Source: an uncultured Anaerolineales bacterium (GTDB lineage: Bacteria; Chloroflexota; Anaerolineae; Anaerolineales; CAYZNA01). From it: 10,598 nt of DNA. Position 1 is the stretch's first letter, and each line of letters begins with the position of its first letter. This document shows, piece after piece, positions 1 through 10,598 of this stretch. Position numbers and translations under genes: made by a program. The notes beneath the pieces are model-generated. The model saw only the letters and a list, made by a program, of their open reading frames with translations, had not been told where the DNA came from and did not search any database. The stretch spans positions 5,923-16,520 of the forward strand of contig CAYZNA010000013.1 of NCBI GenBank assembly GCA_964478665.1. Reading direction: 5' to 3'.

Positions 1-807
1 GAATACGCCGAGAATTACCTGAAAAATCCGCACGACTATTGGAAATACATGGGGTTGTTCAGCGGCTACATCGAAAGCATCGTCAATGCCGGCAAGCCGG
101 TGATCGCCCGGCTGAACGGGATGGCGGTCGGCGGCGGGAACGAGTCGCAACTGGCCTGCGATCTGTCCATCATCGCCGAGCATGCCTATATCAAGCAGGT
201 GGGCACCAGCGTGGGCAGCGTGGCCGCCGGAGGTTCCACCCAGTGGCTGCCACTTTTCGTGGGAGACCGGCGGGCGCGCTACATCCTGATGACCAACCGC
301 CCCATCCTGCCCTACCAGGCGCTGGAATGGGGACTGGTCAACCAGGTTGCGCCCTCGGTAACAAAAGACGGCGAGTTCATCACCCACGCCACGCCGGAGC
401 AGATCAAGAAAGCGCAAAAGGGCGATGAAGGCTACGCCATCAGCCTGGCGAAGCTGGACGAGGCCGTGCAGGCCCTGGCCGGCGAACTGATTGACAAGTT
501 CCCGGAGTGTATGCGCTACACCAAGCAGCAGGTTAACTTTTTCAAGGACCTCGCCTGGCACAGCACCATCGGCCACGCCCGCGACTGGCTTTCGATCCAC
601 TTCGCCACGTGGGAGCCGCTGGAGGGCATGAGCGCCTTCGTGGAGAAGCGGCGGGCCAACCCCACCCGCCTGCGCGAGCTGGCCGCTGCCGGCAAGTCAT
701 CGGAGTTTCCGTGGGGGCCGTACAGCCAGGAGTGCCCGAGTTGCGGTGCGAAGAGCCTGCCCGGTGAGTTCCAGTTCTGCGGCCAGTGCGGAGCAAAGTT
801 GGGATGA
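1..807 (+). CDS. Crotonase-fold (enoyl-CoA hydratase/isomerase superfamily) C-C bond hydrolase, MenB/BadI/Oah(BamA)-like. 5'-truncated at the window edge. Carries a C-terminal zinc-ribbon extension.
   Basis: Frame 1 is open from nt 1 (EYAENYLKNPHDYWKYMGLF...), so the ATG at 49 is internal. The crotonase oxyanion-hole motif is present (ARLNGMAVGGGNESQLACDLSIIAE). The segment MSAFVEKRRANP matches the canonical C-terminal end of MenB-type enzymes (cf. ...EGRNAFNQKRQPDF in MenB, from memory). The GLVNQV motif resembles the MenB GLVNTV. About 45 further residues follow, ending ECPSCGAKSLPGEFQFCGQCGAKLG. Stop is TGA at 805-807. GC3 is high. Confidence 0.85.
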   Translation, partial: EYAENYLKNPHDYWKYMGLFSGYIESIVNAGKPVIARLNGMAVGGGNESQLACDLSIIAEHAYIKQVGTSVGSVAAGGSTQWLPLFVGDRRARYILMTNRPILPYQALEWGLVNQVAPSVTKDGEFITHATPEQIKKAQKGDEGYAISLAKLDEAVQALAGELIDKFPECMRYTKQQVNFFKDLAWHSTIGHARDWLSIHFATWEPLEGMSAFVEKRRANPTRLRELAAAGKSSEFPWGPYSQECPSCGAKSLPGEFQFCGQCGAKLG

Positions 808-873: not shown

Positions 874-2040
874 ATGAGCGTGGAAACATTCCCCGAATGG
901 CGCGACCAGCCGCTGGATGAGATGCTCTACCAGGTGCGGGAAATGCTGGAAGACACCACCTTCCCCACCGTGCAGCGCTGGCGAGCGGCCGGCGGCAAGG
1001 TGGTCGGGCACTTCCAGGTTTACTTCCCGGAAGAGATCGTGCATGCGGCCGGCCTGTTGCCCTTCAAAGTGCGTGGTGCGCAGGTTGAAGCCATGCGGGC
1101 CGACTCGCGCTTCGGCTCGTACCTGTGCTCCATTCTCAAAACCTCGCTGGAGTTGGCGCTGAGCGACCGGGTAAAGATGGAGATGTTTGTCACCCACCCG
1201 ATCTGCGACGCCGCCCGCAATCTGGGCGCGGTGTGGGGCCGCAACTTCCCCTATCCCTGCCAGATCCTGTACCTGCCGCAAAACGCCAATTCCAGCCACG
1301 CCGTCACCTACCTGCGCGGCGAATATGACCGGCTGCGGCGGGGCGTGGAAACCATCGTCGGGCGGCCGGTCTCCGATGATGACCTGCGTTCTTCGTTGGG
1401 GGTGTACAACCAGAACCGGGCGCTGCTGCGCGAGCTGTACGACATCAAACGCGCCGAGCCGTGGCTGGTCACGGCCGATGAAGCCTACGTGCTGACCGCC
1501 ATCGGCGGCGTGCTCCCACGCGAGGAGCACAACCAGCTGCTGCAGGCGGCGCTGCCCGGGTTGCGCGCCCGCGACACCAGGCCGCAGGACAAGGTGCGGG
1601 TGGTGTTCGAGGGCGGCTTCTGCGAGCAGCCGCCGCTGGACCTGATCCGCGCGGTGGGGCGCTCGTGCTACGTGGTGGACGACGACCTGATGATCGGCCT
1701 GCGCTGGATTCTGGAGGACGTGGCGCTGGACGGCGACCCGCTCCACAACCTGGCCCACGCCTATCTGGAACAATCCAGCTATAGCCCGGTGCAGCACGAC
1801 CTGCGCAAGCCCAAGGAGAAGATGCTGCTCGAGCGCATCGAGTCGTCCGGGGCGCAGGCGGCCATCATCACCGCGGCCAAGTTGTGCGAGCCGGGGCTGG
1901 AAGAGCAGGTGGCCTACACGCGCGCGCTGGACGAAGAGGGCGTGCCCTACTTCGTCAGCGAGTTCGAGGAGAACATGACCAGCTTCGACCACCTCGAGAT
2001 CCAGTTGGAGACGTTTGTGGAGAACATCTTGTTTGTCTAG
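874..2040 (+). CDS. Class I benzoyl-CoA reductase / 2-hydroxyacyl-CoA dehydratase family, HgdAB-like Fe-S subunit. The smaller of the two; BcrC/BzdN/BadD-like by size and order.
   Basis: ATG at 874 is preceded by AGGAGG (863-868) with a 5-nt spacer. The ORF-track start at 811 is a GTG upstream of the Shine-Dalgarno site. The 388-aa product has conserved Cys-containing segments (HPICDAARNLG, YPCQILY, FEGGFCEQPP, RSCYVVDDD, AAKLCEPG) typical of HGD-D/BcrB-BcrC family subunits. It sits immediately upstream of a paralogous subunit and two activase-type ATPases. Confidence 0.85.
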   Translation: MSVETFPEWRDQPLDEMLYQVREMLEDTTFPTVQRWRAAGGKVVGHFQVYFPEEIVHAAGLLPFKVRGAQVEAMRADSRFGSYLCSILKTSLELALSDRVKMEMFVTHPICDAARNLGAVWGRNFPYPCQILYLPQNANSSHAVTYLRGEYDRLRRGVETIVGRPVSDDDLRSSLGVYNQNRALLRELYDIKRAEPWLVTADEAYVLTAIGGVLPREEHNQLLQAALPGLRARDTRPQDKVRVVFEGGFCEQPPLDLIRAVGRSCYVVDDDLMIGLRWILEDVALDGDPLHNLAHAYLEQSSYSPVQHDLRKPKEKMLLERIESSGAQAAIITAAKLCEPGLEEQVAYTRALDEEGVPYFVSEFEENMTSFDHLEIQLETFVENILFV

Positions 2041-2103
2041 GGAACCGGGCTATCCCCCGCTGGCCAGCAAACGTCGGCGAGGGATAAGGAAAGGGAGCGT
2101 ACA

Positions 2104-3402
2104 ATGACACAAACACAACTTACCGACGGGATCGTTGGGCGCGGCAACCGCGACGGGGCGCAACTGTTCCGCGACTGGTTCAGCGAGTTGACCCGGGTGG
2201 CGGAAGCCGGCGGCCAGGCGGCCTATGTTTTCGTGATGGGCAGCATGAACGAGGTGCTGAAGACCTTTGATATGCCGGTGGTCTTCCCCGAGATCAACTC
2301 GCTGCAAACCGCCGTTCGCCGCGTGGCCCACGAATACTTGAACGAGGCTGAGGACTACGGCTACTCCCCCGACATCTGCGGCTACGTGAAGGCAGATGTG
2401 GCCGTGCAGCTCCGCCAGGGCAAGCACCCGATGGGCCGCATCCCGAAGCCCAGCCTGGCCGTGCTGACCAACGCCTGCAATACCTACATCAAGTGGGCGG
2501 AGATCTGGGAGCGGATGTACCACATCCCCATCTTTACCCTGGACGTGCCCGGCACCCGCATGGCCGGCGGTCAGACCTGGGCCGGCAACGCGGACTTTGA
2601 GAACGACCGCGCCTACGTGGCCGCACAGCTCAAGGAATTGATCGGGGTGTGCGAGCAGGTCACCGGCAAGAAGTTTGACATTGATAAGTTGCGCGAAGTG
2701 CTGGGGCACGCCAACACCATGAGCCGGGGCTGGAAGCGCGCGCTGGATCTGAACCAGAGCCGGCCCTCGCTATTCAACGCCCTGACCGATGGCACAATTT
2801 ACCTGGGCGTAGCCAACGGCTTCCGCGGCACGCCGGCGGGCGCCAGGTACTTCGACGAACTTGTACAAGAGATGGAATACAAGGCGGCCCACGCCATCGG
2901 CACGCTGACCGACGAAAAGTACCGCCTGATCTTTGTGGGCGTGCCCTGCTACCCCATTTTTCGGCGCTTCAACGAACTGTTCACCGAATGGGGCGGCACG
3001 TTCGTCAACTCCACTTACCTCTGGTTCGCCGCTGGCGGCACCAACCTCGGTTTTGAATACGACGTGAATCGCCCCATGGGTAGTCTGGCGAAGGGCGTGC
3101 TGAGCAGTGTGCGCGATGCAATGGACAGCATGTTTTACCAGGACAGCATCCTGACGAAAATGGTGGACGATTACCACGTGTACGGGGTGGTATATCACCC
3201 GATCAAGAGCTGCCGCACGGTCTCAACCGGCCTGGCCGACAACCGGCGCGCCCTGATGGCCGCCCGCGACGTTCCCAGCCTGTTCATCGAGTCCGACATG
3301 ATGGATCGGCGGGTGGTCTCCGAGGCACAGCTCAAGAACCGGGCGGACGCGTTCTTTGAGGGGTTAGCCACGCGCAAGATGCTGGAGAAGCGCGGGGCGT
3401 GA
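2104..3402 (+). CDS. Class I benzoyl-CoA reductase / 2-hydroxyacyl-CoA dehydratase family, HgdAB-like subunit. The larger of the two; BcrB/BzdO/BadE-like by size and order.
   Basis: ATG at 2104 is preceded by aaGGAaaGGGAGcg. The 432-aa product has Cys-containing segments (DICGYVKAD, TNACNTYIKW, GVPCYPIF, IKSCRTVSTG) and overall resembles the HgdA/BcrB-type component. It follows the previous gene after a 63-nt gap and precedes the two ATPase genes. Confidence 0.85.
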   Translation: MTQTQLTDGIVGRGNRDGAQLFRDWFSELTRVAEAGGQAAYVFVMGSMNEVLKTFDMPVVFPEINSLQTAVRRVAHEYLNEAEDYGYSPDICGYVKADVAVQLRQGKHPMGRIPKPSLAVLTNACNTYIKWAEIWERMYHIPIFTLDVPGTRMAGGQTWAGNADFENDRAYVAAQLKELIGVCEQVTGKKFDIDKLREVLGHANTMSRGWKRALDLNQSRPSLFNALTDGTIYLGVANGFRGTPAGARYFDELVQEMEYKAAHAIGTLTDEKYRLIFVGVPCYPIFRRFNELFTEWGGTFVNSTYLWFAAGGTNLGFEYDVNRPMGSLAKGVLSSVRDAMDSMFYQDSILTKMVDDYHVYGVVYHPIKSCRTVSTGLADNRRALMAARDVPSLFIESDMMDRRVVSEAQLKNRADAFFEGLATRKMLEKRGA

Positions 3403-3461
3403 GGTGAGCGGGTCGCGCATCGCAGGGCCAGTCACGTGTTGTTTGACAAAGGAGGGATACC

Positions 3462-4277
3462 ATGGCATACGCAGCCGGAGTAGACGTAGGGTCCACCCAG
3501 ACCAAAGCGATTATCATCAACGAAAAGCAGCACATCGTGGGCCGGTCGCTGACCGACACCGGCGCCAACGTGGTCGCCGCTGCCCAAAAGGCCTACGAGC
3601 TGGCGCTGGCCGACGCCGGCCTGGAGGAGCGAGAGGTGGAATACGTGGTCGGCACCGGCTATGGCCGCTACCGCGTCACCTTTGGCAACACCCAGGTCAC
3701 CGAGATCAGTTGCCACGGGCGGGGGTCGGTACACATGTTCCCCGATACGCGCACGGTGGTGGACATGGGCGGGCAAGATACCAAAGCGATTCGGGTGAAC
3801 GCCCGCGGCGAAATCCTGGATGTCTGCATGAATGACAAGTGCGCCGCCGGGACCGGCCGCTTCCTGGGGGCGGCCTCGGACGCGCTGGACATCCCGCTCG
3901 GGGAGCTGGGAGCGGTGGCCCTGCGGGCCGAGCGCCCGGTGAGGATCAGCACCACCTGCACGGTGTTCGCCGAGTCGGAGGTGCTCTCCTGGCTGGGCAA
4001 GGGCAAGAAAATCGAAGACATCTTGCAGGGCGTGCACCAGTCCATCGCGCAGCGCTCTATCGGCCTGTTGCGCCGGGTGGGGATCGAGTCCCAGGTTACG
4101 TTTACCGGCGGCGTCGCCAGAAACATCGGCATGATCGCCGCGCTGAATCACGGCATGGGGTTGCAGGTGAACGTCAGCGAGGAATCGCACTATATGGGCG
4201 CGTTGGGGGCCGCCCTGTTTGCCCTCGATCACATCCTGGCCCGTCGCAGCCCGGCCGGCGCGCCTGCAGCAGCCTGA
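3462..4277 (+). CDS. BadF/BadG/BcrA/BcrD-family ATPase (HgdC-like electron-activating ATPase subunit), copy 1
   Basis: ATG at 3462 is preceded by AGGAGGG (3450-3456). The N-terminal ASKHA phosphate-1 motif is [11 protein letters not shown]. Two conserved Cys sit in [13 protein letters not shown] and [12 protein letters not shown], the positions that ligate the inter-subunit [4Fe-4S] cluster in HgdC-type ATPases. Length is 271 aa. Confidence 0.9.
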
Positions 4278-4319
4278 CCGTGCGGCGCCATCACCCCAGG
4301 CGGAGAGGGAAACACTACG

Positions 4320-5162
4320 ATGTATACCACGGGAATTGACGTTGGATCAACCTACACCAAAGCGCTCGTCTTGAGTGAGGACAATCAAATCGTTGGCCGG
4401 GCGATCTCCAGCACCGGCTTCAAGCTGGCGGAGGTCGCCCGGCGGGTGTACGAGCAGGCGCTGGCGCAGGCTGGGTTAGATGCCAGCGACGTGGGCTATG
4501 TGGTCTCGACCGGCTTTGGCCGGCACATGGTCCCCTTCAGCGACGTGTCCGTGACCGACCTGACCGCCAGCGCGCGCGGCGCAGCCTTCCTCTTTCCCGA
4601 GACGCGCACCATTCTGGACGTGGGCGGGCAGACCATGAAGGCCAGCCGGCTGGATGGCCGGGCAAAGGTAAAATCGTTCCGGCTCAACGACAAGTGCGCC
4701 GCCGGCACCGGGGCTTTTCTGGAGAAGACCGCGCGCTATATGGGCTATTCGACCGAGGAGATCGGCCCGCTGGTAGCCACCTCCAAAGAAGTGGTGCCCA
4801 TCTCGGGCGTGTGCGCCGTGTTCGCCGAGTCGGAAGTGATCAACCACCTCTCGATGGGCAGCTCCCCCGCCGACATCATGCACGGGGCCATTGCCTCGCT
4901 GGTGGACCGCTCGGTGCAACTGATGAGGCGCGTGCAAATGGAGCCGGAGTTCACCCTGATCGGCGGCATTTTGCGCTTTGAGACCATGGCCCGCGTGGTG
5001 AGGCAGAACCTGAAGACCGAGGTAAACGTGCCGCAGGGCGACATGGTGCAGTTCACCTCCGCCCTGGGCGCAGCGATCCTGGGCCACCAGCGCCTGCGCA
5101 GGCTGGCCCCGTCGGGGGAGGGCAGCAAGACCGAAGGCGAGATGGCGGCGGTTGAGGCCTGA
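4320..5162 (+). CDS. BadF/BadG/BcrA/BcrD-family ATPase (HgdC-like), copy 2, a distinct paralog of copy 1
   Basis: ATG at 4320 is preceded by GGAGAGGGA (4302-4310). It has [24 protein letters not shown] and SGVCAVFAESEV, the same motif set as the upstream ATPase but clearly diverged. Length is 280 aa. Two different small ATPases in tandem fit the alpha/delta heterodimer of Bzd/Bad-type reductases. Confidence 0.9.
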   Translation: MYTTGIDVGSTYTKALVLSEDNQIVGRAISSTGFKLAEVARRVYEQALAQAGLDASDVGYVVSTGFGRHMVPFSDVSVTDLTASARGAAFLFPETRTILDVGGQTMKASRLDGRAKVKSFRLNDKCAAGTGAFLEKTARYMGYSTEEIGPLVATSKEVVPISGVCAVFAESEVINHLSMGSSPADIMHGAIASLVDRSVQLMRRVQMEPEFTLIGGILRFETMARVVRQNLKTEVNVPQGDMVQFTSALGAAILGHQRLRRLAPSGEGSKTEGEMAAVEA

Positions 5163-5240: not shown

Positions 5241-5543
5241 ATGACTGAAAGTGACGCCCGCCCAACTCCCGCTCTCGATTGGCTGGAAGCCTCCGCCCGC
5301 CGCGTGCTGACGGAGGACCAGCTTGCTCCCGATCCGGCCTTGCTGGCCGAGGGCTGGGAGCGCCGCTTTGTGGCCGACGCCCGGCGGGCGAAGGAAGCCA
5401 TTGAGCTGTACCAGCAACTGGGCTTTGAGGTACGGGCCGAGCCGCTGCGCCCTACCGATCTGGGCGACGATTGCGAAGACTGCAAGCTGGTCGTGGTCTT
5501 TCAGTTCCAGACCATCTATACCCGCCGGAAGCGCGAAGCGTGA
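5241..5543 (+). CDS. Small hypothetical protein (100 aa), no recognisable domain
   Basis: ATG at 5241 with GAGGA three nt upstream, which is a short spacer. Third-position GC is strongly biased as in neighbouring genes and there are no internal stops. It sits between the reductase and VOC genes on the same strand. The sequence (…EAIELYQQLGFEVRAEPLRP…DDCEDCKLVVVFQFQ…) is not recognised. Confidence 0.5.
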   Translation: MTESDARPTPALDWLEASARRVLTEDQLAPDPALLAEGWERRFVADARRAKEAIELYQQLGFEVRAEPLRPTDLGDDCEDCKLVVVFQFQTIYTRRKREA

Positions 5544-5570: not shown

Positions 5571-6026
5571 ATGGACTACATTCGCCGCATCCAGCGCGTC
5601 GCCCTCGCGGTAGAGGACCTTGACCAGGCGCAGGCTTTCTTTGAGAACTGGTTCGGGGCGCAGTTCCTGCCGGAGGAAAACATCAGCGATATGGGCATTC
5701 GCTACCGGCCGTTTAACGTGGGCGAGAGCATGATGGAACTGTTGCAGGCCACCCGCGAGGATAGCCCGGTAGCGCGATTCCTGCGGCAACGCGGCGGGCC
5801 GGGGGTGCACCACATCACCTTTGAGGTAGAAGACCTGGACGCCGCCATCGCCGAACTGGAGCGGCGCGGCGGGCGCATCGCATACCGTCATACTTACGCC
5901 CCCGGCGTCACGTTCGAGGGCAAGTACTGGCGGGAAGCCTTCATTCACCCGAGGGACGCCTTTGGCGTGCTGATCCACCTGGCGGAGACCAGGCCGGTAG
6001 ACCCCCGGCCGGACCCCAATCACTGA
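5571..6026 (+). CDS. VOC (glyoxalase/bleomycin-resistance/dioxygenase) superfamily protein, methylmalonyl-CoA-epimerase-like
   Basis: ATG at 5571 with AGGAA nine nt upstream. The 151-aa product has RVALAVEDLDQAQAFF near the N-terminus and GVHHITFEVEDLDAAIAELERRGG in the second half, the paired beta-alpha-beta-beta-beta module signature typical of methylmalonyl-CoA epimerase/glyoxalase-I-like proteins. Confidence 0.75.
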   Translation: MDYIRRIQRVALAVEDLDQAQAFFENWFGAQFLPEENISDMGIRYRPFNVGESMMELLQATREDSPVARFLRQRGGPGVHHITFEVEDLDAAIAELERRGGRIAYRHTYAPGVTFEGKYWREAFIHPRDAFGVLIHLAETRPVDPRPDPNH

Positions 6027-6052: not shown

Positions 6053-6601
6053 ATGAACACTACCGATCCCGTTGCCTTCTTGCTGTCCGAGCACCGCCGC
6101 ATCATGGCAGCGGTAGATGCAGTCCGGCGCGCCCTGCCCGATCTGCGCTCCCCGGAAGATTTCCGGCGCCACCTGCCGGCTTTGTTGGCCTTCGGCGATG
6201 CGCTGACCTACGACATTCCGGCCCACGCTGGCAAGGAAGACGACATCTTCTTCCCGCCCATCGAGGCCATCATTGGCCGTGAGGGCGGGCCGACCGGCGT
6301 GATGCGCGCAGAGCACAAAGAAATCCACGCCGCCGCGCTCAAGCTGAGTGAAGTGATCCGCGAGTTGAACACGGTGGAACACCCGGCCATCCTGGCCGGC
6401 ACGCAGGCCTACGAGGCGCAGATCCGGGCGGTGCAGGCCGGCGCGGGAGACCTGGCGGCCTTCGTGGCCCACACCCACGAACTGATAGACCTGCTGGACC
6501 GCCACTTTGGCAAGGAAGAGCAGGTGCTGTTTCCCATGTACAACCAACTGGTGGAACCATCGGTTCGCGCGGAGGTGGCCCGGCGCATGGCCGGGCGATA
6601 G
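6053..6601 (+). CDS. Hemerythrin (HHE cation-binding) domain protein
   Basis: It starts with LLSEHRRIMAAVDAV and has two HHE-type motifs: HAGKEDDIFFPPIE and HFGKEEQVLFPMY (H-x2-KEE-x2-LFP). Length is 182 aa. TAG stop at 6599-6601 is followed immediately by a GC hairpin. Confidence 0.75.
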   Translation: MNTTDPVAFLLSEHRRIMAAVDAVRRALPDLRSPEDFRRHLPALLAFGDALTYDIPAHAGKEDDIFFPPIEAIIGREGGPTGVMRAEHKEIHAAALKLSEVIRELNTVEHPAILAGTQAYEAQIRAVQAGAGDLAAFVAHTHELIDLLDRHFGKEEQVLFPMYNQLVEPSVRAEVARRMAGR

Positions 6602-6630: not shown

Positions 6631-7644
6631 TTACGTCTTCTTCTCCTCTTTCAAGGACAGCACGCGCGCCCAGCGATCCAGGGCAATGGCATAGGTCTTG
6701 TTGATGGGCAGGTGCGTGGCGCGCATCTCGTCCAGCAGATCCAGCTTCTTGTTGCCCACCGTCACCATGGCGCGCAGGTCCAGCCCGCCGTCGGCGCGGC
6801 GCGCCATGCTCAGCCAGGTCACTTTTGCCTCGCCGCCGTTCAGCAGTGCGTGCTTTGCCTCCTGCTTGCACAGGTCGTAAAACTGCGTCTGGCGGGTGAA
6901 GATGTAGGGCGGCGCGTGGTCATCTGCTGCGACGAAGTAAAAGCGAAGCCCCTGGCGCGCCGCGGCCTGCGCGGCGAGGACGTACCCCATCCAGTAGGCC
7001 ACGCCCAGGTAGACCTCCAGCACTTCTCTCATCCCGATCTCGACGACCGGCGCCGTGAATGGCAGGCCTAGCTGGGACGCCAGCTCGCGCAGCAGGCTCG
7101 GATAGCCCACCAGCGCCAGCGGGGCCAGCAGCCCGGCCACCACGCTGAAACTGATCGGGCTCCACGCGCGGCCGATCGCGCGCATTAGCCCGATGAGCGC
7201 GCGCGGCACGTCAGGCCCGTCCAGCCCGCGCGCAATGGCGCGCACGGCTTGCTGCACGCGTCGCGTCGCGCGCGCGCTCCACTCGTCAAACGCCGCCAGG
7301 AAGGCGAATATCAGCCCCAGGAAGGCAATCGCCAACCCGCCGCTTATCCCCCAGACCCCATCGGCCCGGACGAAGAACAGCAACCCCACGAACCAGCCGA
7401 GCAGCAGGGTCAGCGCGCCCGGCAGCAACCCGCGCAACTCGCCCATCAGCACCTCCGGGGTCAGCCGGTTCAGCACGCCCCTGTGCCACTCCTGCCACTG
7501 CCGGTTCTGCGAGTGACAGCGCACGCAGACGGTCTCGTTCTCCGGCAGCGGTTCGCGGCAGGCAATGCAGGCCACGCTGCGCGGCACGACCGGCGGCGTC
7601 TCAGGGGCAGCGGCCCCGGCGGTCTCAGCGGGCATCGTGGACAT
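6631..7644 (-). CDS. Polytopic membrane protein with N-terminal zinc ribbon (CxxC-x11-CxxC) and a ~100-aa C-terminal soluble domain. Function unknown.
   Basis: ATG at 7644 (MSTMPAET…) is preceded on the minus strand by GAGGAG with a 6-nt spacer. The ORF-track start at 7797 would overlap the upstream gene by about 170 nt. Zinc ribbon is CIACREPLPENETVCVRCHS. At least four hydrophobic helices follow (LLPGALTLLLGWFVGLLFFV, GISGGLAIAFLGLIFAFLAAF, VVAGLLAPLALVGY, VYLGVAYWMGYVLAA). The hydrophilic C-terminus ends KEEKKT. Confidence 0.65.
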   Translation of the reverse strand: MSTMPAETAGAAAPETPPVVPRSVACIACREPLPENETVCVRCHSQNRQWQEWHRGVLNRLTPEVLMGELRGLLPGALTLLLGWFVGLLFFVRADGVWGISGGLAIAFLGLIFAFLAAFDEWSARATRRVQQAVRAIARGLDGPDVPRALIGLMRAIGRAWSPISFSVVAGLLAPLALVGYPSLLRELASQLGLPFTAPVVEIGMREVLEVYLGVAYWMGYVLAAQAAARQGLRFYFVAADDHAPPYIFTRQTQFYDLCKQEAKHALLNGGEAKVTWLSMARRADGGLDLRAMVTVGNKKLDLLDEMRATHLPINKTYAIALDRWARVLSLKEEKKT

Positions 7645-8353
7645 CGGCAGGCTCCTCAACTCTAGTCCTGAAAAGTCGCAGCGCGTCGCCCGCGGCAGGC
7701 GCGTTGCCCGATCCGGGGGCCGGGGCCGCTGGCCGGGCGCCGGTTGCCAGTCCGGGCGCGGGAGCGCCTGTCGCGCCCGGCGCCCCGTGCTGGCCATCGG
7801 CCCAGTCGCGCAGCAGGGCGAGGCGACGCCACAGCCGGCTCAGGGTCGGGCTTCCGTCCAGATTGTGCAACAAGTCCAGCCCGGAGGTGCACACTCGAGA
7901 GACGCACAGCCAGTGGCTGGTCTGAGCGTAAGCAACCGCCAGCCCGCACAGGCTGGCGGCCTGCAGCGGGTCAGCGTGGAAAGAAGCGCGAAAGCTGCTG
8001 GCGCTCCGCTCGTAGGCGCGCACGGCCAGGTCTGACTTCTGCTCCACGCAATGGCAACCTCCGGCATACCCGTGGAGCATGCCCTGCACAACGGTCGGCA
8101 CCAGATGATCCACGCGGTTGCTGCGGACCGTCTCCATCGCCTGCAGCCCGTGCGTCACCCGAACAAGCGCGCCGGCCCAATCGCGCCGATTCCAATCCGT
8201 GCGGGTCTGCTCGACGTAGCGCACGAGCGCCGGCTCACCCTGCAACGCCCGCCGCACTTGCTCGCTGCAGTCCCACAGCAGCAGTTGGAGCGTGTCCACG
8301 ACCTCCACAGCGATGTCCGAGAGCACGAGCGGTTCACGCAGATCAGCAAGCAT
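7625..8353 (-). CDS. Hypothetical, predicted alpha-helical soluble protein with a Pro/Ala/Gly-rich low-complexity C-terminal tail
   Basis: ATG at 8353 (MLADLREPLVL…) is preceded on the minus strand by GGAGGA with an 8-nt spacer. The longer ORF-track start at 8473 would overlap the upstream gene's 3' end. The tail reads GAPGATGAPAPGLATGARPAAPAPGSGNAPAAG. It overlaps the downstream gene start by 20 nt (7625-7644). No recognisable domain. Confidence 0.55.
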   Translation of the reverse strand: MLADLREPLVLSDIAVEVVDTLQLLLWDCSEQVRRALQGEPALVRYVEQTRTDWNRRDWAGALVRVTHGLQAMETVRSNRVDHLVPTVVQGMLHGYAGGCHCVEQKSDLAVRAYERSASSFRASFHADPLQAASLCGLAVAYAQTSHWLCVSRVCTSGLDLLHNLDGSPTLSRLWRRLALLRDWADGQHGAPGATGAPAPGLATGARPAAPAPGSGNAPAAGDALRLFRTRVEEPADVHDAR

Positions 8354-8408
8354 GTCAGGTATCCTCCATAGATTCAGAGCGCCGTCAACCGAGCCTGGCT
8401 TTCCGGCC

Positions 8409-10598
8409 TCATGTCGTCTGCCCGGCGCCGGCGTCCTCGCCGGCCGGCGGCGGTTCGGCCGCCATCTCCCCACGCGCAGGCGCAGCGGGGAGGATCTGCT
8501 CTCTGGCGAGGAAGGCCGCCAGGGCCTCGATCTTTGAAAGGTCGCTGAAAGCGGCCAGGCGCACGAGCATCTCCATCAGCCCCTTGTCCTCAAGGATCTG
8601 CGGATCCGCCTGGCCCAGCACCGCAAGCAACTGCCGCAGGTACTCCACGCGCGCCAGCGCCTCGCCGCGGCCGGTGATAGCCTTCGCTTCGGCCTTGCCA
8701 CGCGCACGATCCACGTCCGCGTGAGCCATCAATTGGGCCAGTTCGGCCTGCATCCCCGCGCGGATGCGCTCTGCCTCCATTTCGGCCTCCACCTCCGCAC
8801 CTCTTGCTTGTTTGAGCAAGCCGGCGACATCGCGGGCAGCTTCGAGCTCGCGCTTGCGGTCGGCCAGTCTGACCGCTTCCTTCGCCGACTCTTTCCAGGC
8901 GTCGGTCCTGGCGTGTTCCACTTCCGCCCAGCGGCGCCATTGAATATCCCAGATTTGCAGCAGCCGCTCACTCACATCGCGGGGCATGCGCAGTTCGTCG
9001 AGCGTGACGCGCACTACCTCCACCCCCCAGCGCTGCGCCAGCCGGTCCAGCCGGCGTTGAAGTTCGAACTGCAGCGGTGCGCGCGGGGAAAGCTGCCCGT
9101 CCATCACCGTGCTGCGCGGGTCGAAGATCAGCTCCAGATAGCGGGCGGAGATCGCCTCGCGCAGGGCGGCGCGGGCCGCCTGCTCGGTCTGCTGGCGCCA
9201 GTCGGCCGCGTTCAACGCGGCCCGGCGCAGCACGTCATCCTCCAATACGTAGCGGCCCTCGGTTACCAGTGCGGCCTCGTCCTGCATGATGCGGTATTGG
9301 ATGGAGAACTTCACCTTCAGCGGCACGCCCTCGCGGGAGTAGACCGTTTCCTCGCTCTGGTCAATGGCCTGCGTTTGCAGGCGCAGATCGAACACTGCCC
9401 GCAGCGCCTCACCGAACTGGGTGACCACCATGCCCGGCCCGGATACCCGCGAGACTTGCCCAAAGCGCTCGAACACGCCGGCGCTGGCTCCGGTAAGCAG
9501 CACCAGCCCCGGTCCCGGCAGGCGCAGCGGCCCGCTGCCCTGCAAGGCGCCGTCCACCACCTGCTGAAAGGCGCTAAACCACGGGTTGCGTGGCCACACT
9601 GCGGCCATCATGGCGCCAAACAGGCGGCGCCGGCCCTCCGCCCGATCCACCGCGTGCCAGTCGGCCAGCACGCCGGCGGCCAGCCACCACGCGGCCAGGG
9701 CGGAGCCGGCCAGCGCGGTCAGCGCCAGCAGCGCCGCCAGCACAGCGCGGCGGGTGCGCGCGGGGCGCGCCGTTTGCGGGAGCGGAATCGCGCCCACTTC
9801 CGCCACGTAGGCCCCCTCCTTCGTGGCCACCAGCAGGCGGCCGCGCGCCGCGTCCACAATCAGCAGCCTGCCATCCAGGCCCAGCGCCAGAGAAGTGGGG
9901 GTAAACGGCCCGCGCAGATCGCTGATCTGACGCAGATACCTGCCGTCGGCGCCGAACACTGCCACCCGGCGGTGTCCGCTGTCGGCCACAAAGGCCGTCC
10001 CCTGCCAGTCCACCGCCACATCCGTGGGATACGATAGCTGGGCCTCCGGCGGGGCATCTTTGAGCGGCAGCGTGGTGGTGAGGGTGCGCGTGACCGGCTC
10101 GAACACCCAGATGACATTGCTGAGTGGGTCAGCCAGATGGAGTTGGCCGCTTTCGGGGTAAATGCCCAGCCCGCCGGGGGAAACGAAGACGTGGGGGGTG
10201 TCGTCGCCCCTGTCACCCAGGCCGGTCACAGCCCCATCGGGCTTGATGATCTGCACCCGCCGGTTCTCGGCGTCGGCGACGTAAAGGTTGCCTTGCCTGT
10301 CTTCCAGCGCGTCAGTGGGTGAGCGGAACTGCTTCAGGGCGGCGCCAACCTCACCCAGCGGCTCAATTGTGGCGCCGTCGTCGAACAGACGAAACAGGCG
10401 GTGCTGTCCCGGGTCGGTGACAATCAGGTGCTCGTGTGCCTGCCAGTCGTCGCCGTCGCGCTTCGGGGCAAGGAACAGGCCGTCCGGCTGCACCAGCTCA
10501 CCCCGCATCCACTCGTTCACTGGTTGCAGTGTCCTGTCGAGCACCACTACCCGATGCGCCAGCAGGTCCCCCACGTACACCTTCTCATCGGAGGCGGC
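8409..10598 (-). CDS. Fusion protein: NHL-repeat beta-propeller + single TM helix + SPFH/band-7 (flotillin/stomatin/prohibitin-like) domain with E/A-rich coiled coil. 5' end outside the window.
   Basis: The frame stays open beyond 10598 (…AASDEK VYVGDLLAHR), so the gene is 5'-partial. NHL blades: GNLYVADAENRRVQIIKPDG, TAFVADSGHRRVAVFGADGRYL, LLIVDAARGRLLVATKEG, LHLADPLSNVIWVF. TM is RRAVLAALLALTALAGSALAAWWLAAGVLA (about 9665-9752). SPFH core is VFERFGQVSRVSGPGMVV…LKVKFSIQYRI. A flotillin-like E/A/R-rich coiled coil follows (RKRELEAARDVAGLLKQARGAEVEAEMEAERIRAGMQAELAQL). Stop TGA (revcomp) at 8409-8411. Confidence 0.85.
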   Translation of the reverse strand, partial: AASDEKVYVGDLLAHRVVVLDRTLQPVNEWMRGELVQPDGLFLAPKRDGDDWQAHEHLIVTDPGQHRLFRLFDDGATIEPLGEVGAALKQFRSPTDALEDRQGNLYVADAENRRVQIIKPDGAVTGLGDRGDDTPHVFVSPGGLGIYPESGQLHLADPLSNVIWVFEPVTRTLTTTLPLKDAPPEAQLSYPTDVAVDWQGTAFVADSGHRRVAVFGADGRYLRQISDLRGPFTPTSLALGLDGRLLIVDAARGRLLVATKEGAYVAEVGAIPLPQTARPARTRRAVLAALLALTALAGSALAAWWLAAGVLADWHAVDRAEGRRRLFGAMMAAVWPRNPWFSAFQQVVDGALQGSGPLRLPGPGLVLLTGASAGVFERFGQVSRVSGPGMVVTQFGEALRAVFDLRLQTQAIDQSEETVYSREGVPLKVKFSIQYRIMQDEAALVTEGRYVLEDDVLRRAALNAADWRQQTEQAARAALREAISARYLELIFDPRSTVMDGQLSPRAPLQFELQRRLDRLAQRWGVEVVRVTLDELRMPRDVSERLLQIWDIQWRRWAEVEHARTDAWKESAKEAVRLADRKRELEAARDVAGLLKQARGAEVEAEMEAERIRAGMQAELAQLMAHADVDRARGKAEAKAITGRGEALARVEYLRQLLAVLGQADPQILEDKGLMEMLVRLAAFSDLSKIEALAAFLAREQILPAAPARGEMAAEPPPAGEDAGAGQTT

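Follow-up and report, generated by a model that had tools for sequence, protein, structure and literature searches.

Facultative anaerobes rely on class I benzoyl-coenzyme A (CoA) reductases as their key enzymes of dearomatisation, and nearly all work on these enzymes has concerned Proteobacteria. Does a cassette of four genes on a 10,598-nt stretch of DNA from an uncultured Anaerolineales bacterium (Chloroflexota; contig CAYZNA010000013.1, positions 5,923 to 16,520; hereafter the window) encode such an enzyme, and if so, of which type and for which substrate? A preliminary description of the window had assigned positions 874–5162 to an ATP-dependent aryl-CoA reductase of 'Bzd/Bad-type' layout. 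We put the probability at about 0.8 that the product of the cassette is a class I (ATP-dependent) benzoyl-CoA reductase, heterotetrameric and of the methylbenzoyl-CoA reductase (MBR) lineage, because both the sequence relationships and the context of pathway genes point to this assignment. The direct observations concern the genes present, their homology, the conserved ligands and the context of the operon, and are described in turn.

Gene content and assignment to the MBR type

The + strand of the window carries eight co-directional genes, followed by convergent genes (open reading frame (ORF) list). Four of the eight form the cassette, with gaps of 42–66 nt between them, all on the + strand. 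Window proteins were searched with Pfam profiles and with NCBIfam equivalog models at their own cut-offs, and each subunit was matched to the PDB. All four cassette products matched their Pfam families far beyond chance (Table 1), two HGD-D proteins being followed by two BcrAD/BadFG ATPases, and the ORF list reproduced the positions and protein lengths of the preliminary description exactly. From these relationships, the first gene product (N) is predicted to be the electron-transfer Fe-S (gamma) subunit of the catalytic dimer and the second (O) the substrate-binding, active-site (beta) subunit. N and O showed no significant pairwise similarity in BLASTP. The ATPases Q (alpha) and P (delta) are 41% identical and hence old paralogues, not recent duplicates, in line with the earlier view of two distinct ATPases.

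The best PDB match of every subunit was its counterpart in the 3-methylbenzoyl-CoA reductase MbdONQP (Thauera chlorobenzoica 3CB-1/Azoarcus sp. CIB; PDB 9g87, 9gai, 9gal, 9gba), the closest characterised relative at 54–72% identity: N with MbdN (9g87_B; 535 bits, 57.6%), O with MbdO (9g87_A; 531 bits, 54.3%), Q with MbdQ (9gai_D; 420 bits, 72.2%) and P with MbdP (9gai_C; 323 bits, 57.6%), all given as global identities. Matches of the large subunits to HadB/HadC and BzdO/BzdN were far weaker (90–126 bits, 25–29% identity). With 531–535 bits to MbdO/MbdN against 104–126 to HadB/HadC, the earlier choice of a class I aryl-CoA reductase over a dehydratase is upheld.

Class I enzymes comprise three types, BCR, MBR and BZD (Fuchs et al. 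2025, PMC11971306). The best NCBIfam models for N and O were BcrC and BcrB, at 275 and 207 bits (equivalog cut-offs 421 and 487), and Q and P reached 217 and 141 bits on BcrA and BcrD (cut-offs 578 and 313). When MbdN and MbdO were run through the same library they scored 230 and 221 bits on BcrC and BcrB, so that the window and the MBR enzyme stand equally far from the BCR type of Thauera aromatica. The BZD-type models were not passed either, with BzdN, BzdO and BzdQ at 104, 98 and 184 bits (cut-offs 454, 449 and 380).

A neighbour-joining tree of the beta subunit was built from the window, 80 genome loci, MbdO and HadB, without BcrB, BadE or MbrB references; the NCBIfam equivalog scores serve as a proxy for the BCR-type references missing from it, and a tblastn search of plasmids for the named BcrB and BadE references gave only 21–28% matches. 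The 80 loci, hereafter the related loci, are the best of at least 586 confirmed loci from a scan that took one genome for each GTDB species. In this tree the window and the 80 loci form one tight clade, to which MbdO is sister and not nested, with HadB a distant outgroup. Taken together, the scores and the tree place the cassette with the MBR type, as neither Bzd-type nor Bad/Bcr-type.

The resemblance to Mbd extends to subunit lengths (N/O/Q/P of 388/445/269/273 aa in Mbd versus 388/432/271/280 aa in the window) and to the short alpha ATPase. Q covers only positions 224–432 of the BcrA model, so the N-terminal half of BcrA is missing from it, as it is from MbdQ (269 aa). However, in the tree the window falls in a sister clade, with 54% identity to MbdO compared with 75–83% within the clade, and its hosts are Chloroflexota, Acidobacteriota, Gemmatimonadota and Planctomycetota known from metagenome-assembled genomes (MAGs), whereas Mbd hosts are denitrifying Proteobacteria.

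BcrCBAD of Thauera aromatica and BadDEFG of Rhodopseudomonas palustris, both of the BCR type, belong to the same family and have the same gamma-beta-alpha-delta gene order as the window. Unlike them, the window has an alpha subunit without the approximately 220-residue N-terminal part of BcrA/BadF and a cassette without an fdx gene after it. The preliminary description had rightly set the two ATPases of about 30 kDa apart from the larger BcrA, but it likened them to a BadDEFG with two such ATPases; BadF, like BcrA, is a large protein of about 430 aa covered by the BcrA model, so that Bad does not have two 30-kDa ATPases. BzdNOPQ (Aromatoleum/Azoarcus sp. CIB; PDB 8s02), of the BZD type and again of the same family, does share two ATPases of about 30 kDa with the window, but its identity to the window proteins is only about 25%, its models are missed by a wide margin (104/98 bits against cut-offs of about 450 for BzdN/BzdO), and its gene order is gamma-beta-delta-alpha rather than gamma-beta-alpha-delta. 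The 'Bzd/Bad-type' label is therefore replaced here by a placement nearest to MbdONQP, which the preliminary description had named only for comparison in a phylogeny.

A 2-hydroxyacyl-CoA dehydratase of the HgdAB/HadBC/FldBC/LcdAB kind, equipped with a heterodimeric activator, would account for the family name HGD-D in Pfam, for the label '2-hydroxyacyl-CoA dehydratase' that NCBI gives to close homologues (P0002 and others), and for HadB/HadC as second-best PDB matches. HadBC and its activator HadI (R-2-hydroxyisocaproyl-CoA dehydratase; PDB 3o3m, 4eht) have the same superfamily fold, with the same three cysteines in their catalytic subunit and two bridging cysteines in the ATPase. Nevertheless, HadC and HadB models gave only 154 and 140 bits (cut-offs 700 and 750) at 25–29% identity, HadB is the outgroup of the beta tree, and the window encodes two distinct ATPases, whereas HadI is one homodimeric activator that uses ATP catalytically, not stoichiometrically. 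Moreover, the neighbouring genes are crotonases and a dehydrogenase of a dearomatisation pathway, and the role of HadBC is amino-acid fermentation. We regard this reading as very unlikely; scores and context effectively refute it.

Cluster ligands and active-site residues

In the ATPases, Q Cys127 and Cys166 align with two cysteines of HgdC (1hux), Cys127 and Cys166, which we take to be the ligands of its [4Fe-4S] cluster, and P Cys126 and Cys165 align with the corresponding cysteines of MbdP. All four are 100% conserved in 74–77 relatives, and each ATPase thus has both bridging cysteines, as had been described.

The cysteine pattern of the gamma subunit is that of Mbd. Cys85, Cys111 and Cys338 of N are common to HadC and BzdN, and Cys250 is shared only with MbdN, being absent from Had and Bzd; none of the four varies in 75 relatives. 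In BzdN six cysteines ligate an [8Fe-9S] double cubane, and only three of those positions are cysteine in N. Given these three positions and Cys250, we infer that the gamma cluster is a single cubane rather than the double cubane of BzdN. The same pattern bears on a further reading, in which the cassette would encode a small-molecule reductase of the double-cubane-cluster (DCCP/YjiM-like) family with its ATPase. Matches to the double_cubane model NF040772 (101 and 49 bits) and to PDB 7yyl and 6eno hint at it weakly. However, these scores are far under the cut-off of 350, and of the BzdN/DCCP cysteine positions the gamma subunit keeps just three. The catalytic pair is also a heterodimer, and the context is one of CoA-ester metabolism. 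A DCCP identity is scarcely credible on these scores and this context, and was rejected.

The beta subunit retains the three-cysteine active-site cluster and the catalytic glutamate of the BZD type (PMC11971306). Cys92, Cys125 and Cys370 of O align with the BzdO ligands Cys95, Cys128 and Cys380 and show no variation in 80 relatives. The same holds for Glu63, which is common to MbdO and HadB; it was equated with BzdO Glu65, for which a role as proton donor has been proposed (PMC11971306), solely by counting residues backwards from the first aligned position, as the alignment itself excludes the residue.

Operon context and proposed reaction

At the left edge of the window, and overlooked in the preliminary description, lies a crotonase gene that runs beyond the edge (Table 1). 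Its best NCBIfam match is Oah (TIGR03200), followed by BadI and MenB, and the full-length homologue at locus L011 reached 214 bits on Oah (cut-off 464). The C-terminus carries a CxxC-x14-CxxC zinc ribbon, for which Pfam zinc-ribbon matches were sub-threshold. The flanks of the window were obtained from L085 and L086, contigs of another assembly (GCA_016208285.1) that have 99.7–100% DNA identity to the window and represent essentially the same organism. L086 (99.7%) has, directly upstream, an enoyl-CoA hydratase-family (ECH) gene with Dch as best match (156 bits, cut-off 292) and a zinc alcohol dehydrogenase (ADH) gene with Had as best match (234 bits, cut-off 339). Joined with the window, this gives the operon order dch-like, had-like, oah-like, N, O, Q, P, orf100, VOC, hemerythrin. 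Similarly, the mbd operon contains Had-, Oah- and Dch-type genes (ADH, long ECH and short ECH in T. chlorobenzoica), and a Bacteroidota-like locus (L082) reads ADH-ECH-ECH-short-chain dehydrogenase-N-O-Q-P. In members of the clade from Terriglobia, Had (447 bits, above 339) and Oah (547 bits, above 464) lie immediately upstream of N.

The statement that the surroundings are not the canonical benzoyl-CoA pathway set was thus mistaken, as Dch-like, Had-like and Oah-like genes precede the cassette. An examination of the flanks for further pathway genes, as the preliminary description had proposed, recovered the dienoyl-CoA hydratase- and dehydrogenase-like genes (L086), whereas a ferredoxin gene was not found there (L085/L086).

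For the proposed reaction we infer the substrate, the ATP stoichiometry and the electron donor from homology to Mbd, Bzd and Hgd. A low-potential donor would reduce the [4Fe-4S] cluster bridged by alpha Cys127/Cys166 and delta Cys126/Cys165, and ATP hydrolysis, at one ATP per electron, would drive the electron to the gamma cluster, from which it would move on to the three-cysteine [4Fe-4S]-OH2 cluster of beta. There benzoyl-CoA, and probably also its methyl- and halo-analogues, would receive a proton from Glu63 and be reduced to cyclohexa-1,5-diene-1-carbonyl-CoA. The route described to the 1,5-dienoyl-CoA begins with hydrogen-atom transfer and continues with electron/proton transfer (PMC11971306). 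The Dch-like hydratase, Had-like dehydrogenase and Oah-like hydrolase would then hydrate, oxidise and open the ring.

As already stated in the preliminary description, the window has no ferredoxin gene, since it holds no ORF with the motif CxxCxxCxxxCP. In the 80 related loci this motif occurs only in proteins of at least 360 aa (e.g. IorA), with the exception of an 80-aa ORF at the cut end of L021. A Fer4 gene is also absent beside the mbd genes of T. chlorobenzoica (L087, CP018839.1), so that the absence is normal for the MBR type and a ferredoxin neighbour is not strictly defining.

Several observations weigh against a benzoyl-CoA reductase of the MBR type. Neither a ferredoxin nor a 2-oxoacid:ferredoxin oxidoreductase gene was found in the window or in the flanks of about 4 kb (L085/L086). 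The large subunits are ordered N-O-Q-P in the window and in 80/80 loci, which differs from the O-N-Q-P of T. chlorobenzoica and Magnetospirillum sp. XM-1. At position 128 of beta (window 2485–2487), where BzdO has the acid/base His131, all 80 clade members have Tyr; MbdO has Phe and HadB Val. Lastly, the Dch-, Had- and Oah-like proteins of this lineage fall below their NCBIfam equivalog cut-offs, so that the ring substrate could be substituted or be a different alicyclic or aryl-CoA.

This last point leads to a reading within the same enzyme family, in which the physiological substrate is not benzoyl-CoA but a substituted (methyl, hydroxy, halo or amino) or other aryl- or alicyclic-CoA, handled by a modified Dch/Had/Oah set. 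The scores of these neighbours in the Chloroflexota lineage (156 of 292, 234 of 339 and 214 of 464 bits) and the clade-specific Tyr128 beside the active-site cluster fit such a substrate. So do the zinc ribbon, which is unusual on an Oah-like enzyme, and the activity of the nearest characterised enzyme, which reduces methyl/halobenzoyl-CoA. In 11 loci the cassette adjoins a gene for a PaaX-like regulator, a type that typically senses aryl-acyl-CoA. Against this, the subunits are 75–83% identical to those of the Terriglobia loci, where Had and Oah exceed the strict cut-offs, and conservation as tight as this between phyla speaks for a single central substrate common to all. Furthermore, MBR reportedly also reduces benzoyl-CoA. 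We consider the reading improbable overall; a non-benzoate aryl- or alicyclic-CoA, as put forward in the preliminary description, is possible but not favoured. For the benzoyl-CoA reductase preferred here, the substrate is the main remaining uncertainty, and the sub-threshold Dch/Had/Oah scores together with the kinship to methyl/halobenzoyl-CoA reductase leave room for substituted benzoyl-CoAs.

Table 1. Features on the + strand of the window, with the profile matches of their products.
Feature	Position	Strand	Match
Crotonase-fold ring hydrolase candidate (Oah/BadI/MenB-like), 3' part; gene exceeds left window edge	49–807	+	ECH_1, E 9e-26
Gamma subunit N (MbdN/BcrC-like), 388 aa from ATG at 874	874–2040	+	HGD-D PF06050, E 5e-60
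Beta subunit O (MbdO/BcrB-like), 432 aa	2104–3402	+	HGD-D PF06050, E 2e-59
Alpha ATPase subunit Q (MbdQ-like), 271 aa	3462–4277	+	BcrAD_BadFG PF01869, E 3e-62
Delta ATPase subunit P (MbdP-like), 280 aa	4320–5162	+	BcrAD_BadFG PF01869, E 2e-54
orf100, conserved small CxxC protein, accessory gene of MBR-type reductase operons	5241–5543	+	
VOC/glyoxalase-fold protein, methylmalonyl-CoA epimerase-like	5571–6026	+	Glyoxalase_4, E 9e-16; TIGR03081, 100 bits (cut-off 115)
Hemerythrin-domain protein, last of co-directional array	6053–6601	+	PF01814, E 2e-19

Distribution of the lineage

Homologues of the 432-aa beta protein number in the thousands. One, on a 24.5-kb NCBI contig, matches it at 100%, and another, at 99%, bears the annotation 'MAG: 2-hydroxyacyl-CoA dehydratase [Chloroflexi bacterium]'. 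The 80 related loci, which share 75–83% identity, all come from MAGs, and their hosts are Chloroflexota, Acidobacteriota (Blastocatellia, Terriglobia), Gemmatimonadota, Planctomycetota and a few others. An MBR-like lineage with tight conservation is thus common in uncultured members of these four phyla, where it is often mis-annotated as '2-hydroxyacyl-CoA dehydratase', and its spread leads us to expect that a wider set of organisms degrades aromatics without oxygen.

In three Gemmatimonadota loci (L040 1549–5643, L041 1560–5651, L069 367–4459) the MBR-like cassette is accompanied, about 5 kb upstream, by a second one with the order HGD-D/HGD-D/ATPase/ATPase, which is very divergent (23–28% and 36–42% identity). 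Planctomycetota loci (L016 778–2696) have a pair of HGD-D and ATPase genes about 8 kb upstream.

A small CxxC protein and a hemerythrin accompany the reductase

The reductase cassette itself is ordinary for class I, and the one element meriting follow-up is orf100, which encodes a small CxxC protein. A hidden Markov model detected it in 56/80 related loci, in each case immediately downstream of the delta ATPase gene and in the same orientation. Six of the 24 loci without it stop short of its position, and a single Blastocatellia/Pyrinomonadaceae subclade accounts for most of the others. When 1.84 billion representatives were searched with a profile, 901 clusters were returned at E<=0.001; the best 150 of these are all stand-alone proteins of 71–132 aa, and four of four divergent members inspected follow a BcrAD gene. 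No relatives of the family are known. Among its invariant residues are G38, W39, R42, F43, L56, Y57, G61, E63, C78, C81, Y93, T94 and R95, and the AlphaFold model shows a small alpha/beta fold (mean predicted local distance difference test score, pLDDT, 72).

A homologue also follows mbdP directly in T. chlorobenzoica (L087 10791–11117; E 9e-12). It retains the GWE-R, LGFEVR-EP and CxxC motifs but carries no gene call, and is thus missing from the genome annotation of the model organism. A small CxxC ORF after the delta gene and the lack of an adjacent ferredoxin gene are therefore common to Mbd and the window. In Magnetospirillum XM-1 no orf100 homologue was found. Overall, orf100 is conserved from Thauera to Chloroflexota, Acidobacteriota, Gemmatimonadota and Planctomycetota.

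The hemerythrin gene is, unlike in Mbd, a frequent neighbour in the window clade, flanking the cassette in 10/80 loci and lying further away in two more. Its product has weak similarity to the Fe-S repair proteins YtfE/RIC. At L011 (13047–13889) hemerythrin and orf100 are fused in one ORF, and at L082 (7415–8240) a hemerythrin gene lies between P and the small CxxC ORF. In Magnetospirillum XM-1 a rubrerythrin gene is found two genes after P instead of a hemerythrin gene.

Candidate roles for orf100 are a dimeric electron adaptor, with a metal or Fe-S site formed by two cysteines per monomer, or a maturation or protection factor. We tentatively suggest, while thinking it rather less than an even chance, that orf100 may be an unrecognised fifth component of the MBR system, either as a dimeric Fe or Fe-S electron adaptor or, with the hemerythrin, as a factor for cluster assembly, repair or oxygen protection. 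An adaptor would replace the missing ferredoxin; protection by orf100 and hemerythrin would let these very oxygen-labile reductases work in facultative or soil organisms. The CxxC mini-protein and, more loosely, the hemerythrin are thus a new practical lead attached to these reductase operons.

Other features of the locus

The VOC gene lies between orf100 and the hemerythrin gene and, by its position, is co-transcribed. It occurs in 1/80 related loci (L034) and was rejected as a component of the system for this reason. A scan of the window for promoters and terminators gave nothing exceeding shuffle expectation.

The fusion of an Oah-like enzyme with a zinc ribbon also occurs in the Chloroflexota/Gemmatimonadota loci L011, L026 and L077 (64–78% identity), and a canonical Oah without zinc ribbon is found in its place in Terriglobia loci. 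The PaaX-family regulator next to the cassette in 11 loci (228 bits, cut-off 265) is mostly from Chloroflexota (e.g. L001 13288–14220, L074 7591–8460), and in other phyla TetR-family regulators occupy its position.

Downstream, the convergent genes lie on the - strand at 6631–7797, 7625–8473 and 8409–10580. They encode a 723-aa protein with NHL repeats and an SPFH/Band 7 domain, and two ORFs without family matches that overlap by 173 nt; a 388-aa ORF among the convergent genes, for which L085 has a call of 242 aa, shows a weak zinc-ribbon-like motif. Downstream on the opposite strand, L085 has cupin, Rrf2, NifU, response-regulator and GAF-kinase genes.

The sole differences of L085 and L086 from the window are two clean deletions, one of 238 bp in the alpha ATPase gene of L086 (window 3585–3822) and one of 53 bp at the 3' end of the hemerythrin gene of L085 (window 6472–6524), where a 321-aa protein is called. 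These are probably assembly errors or population variants, the versions in the window looking intact.

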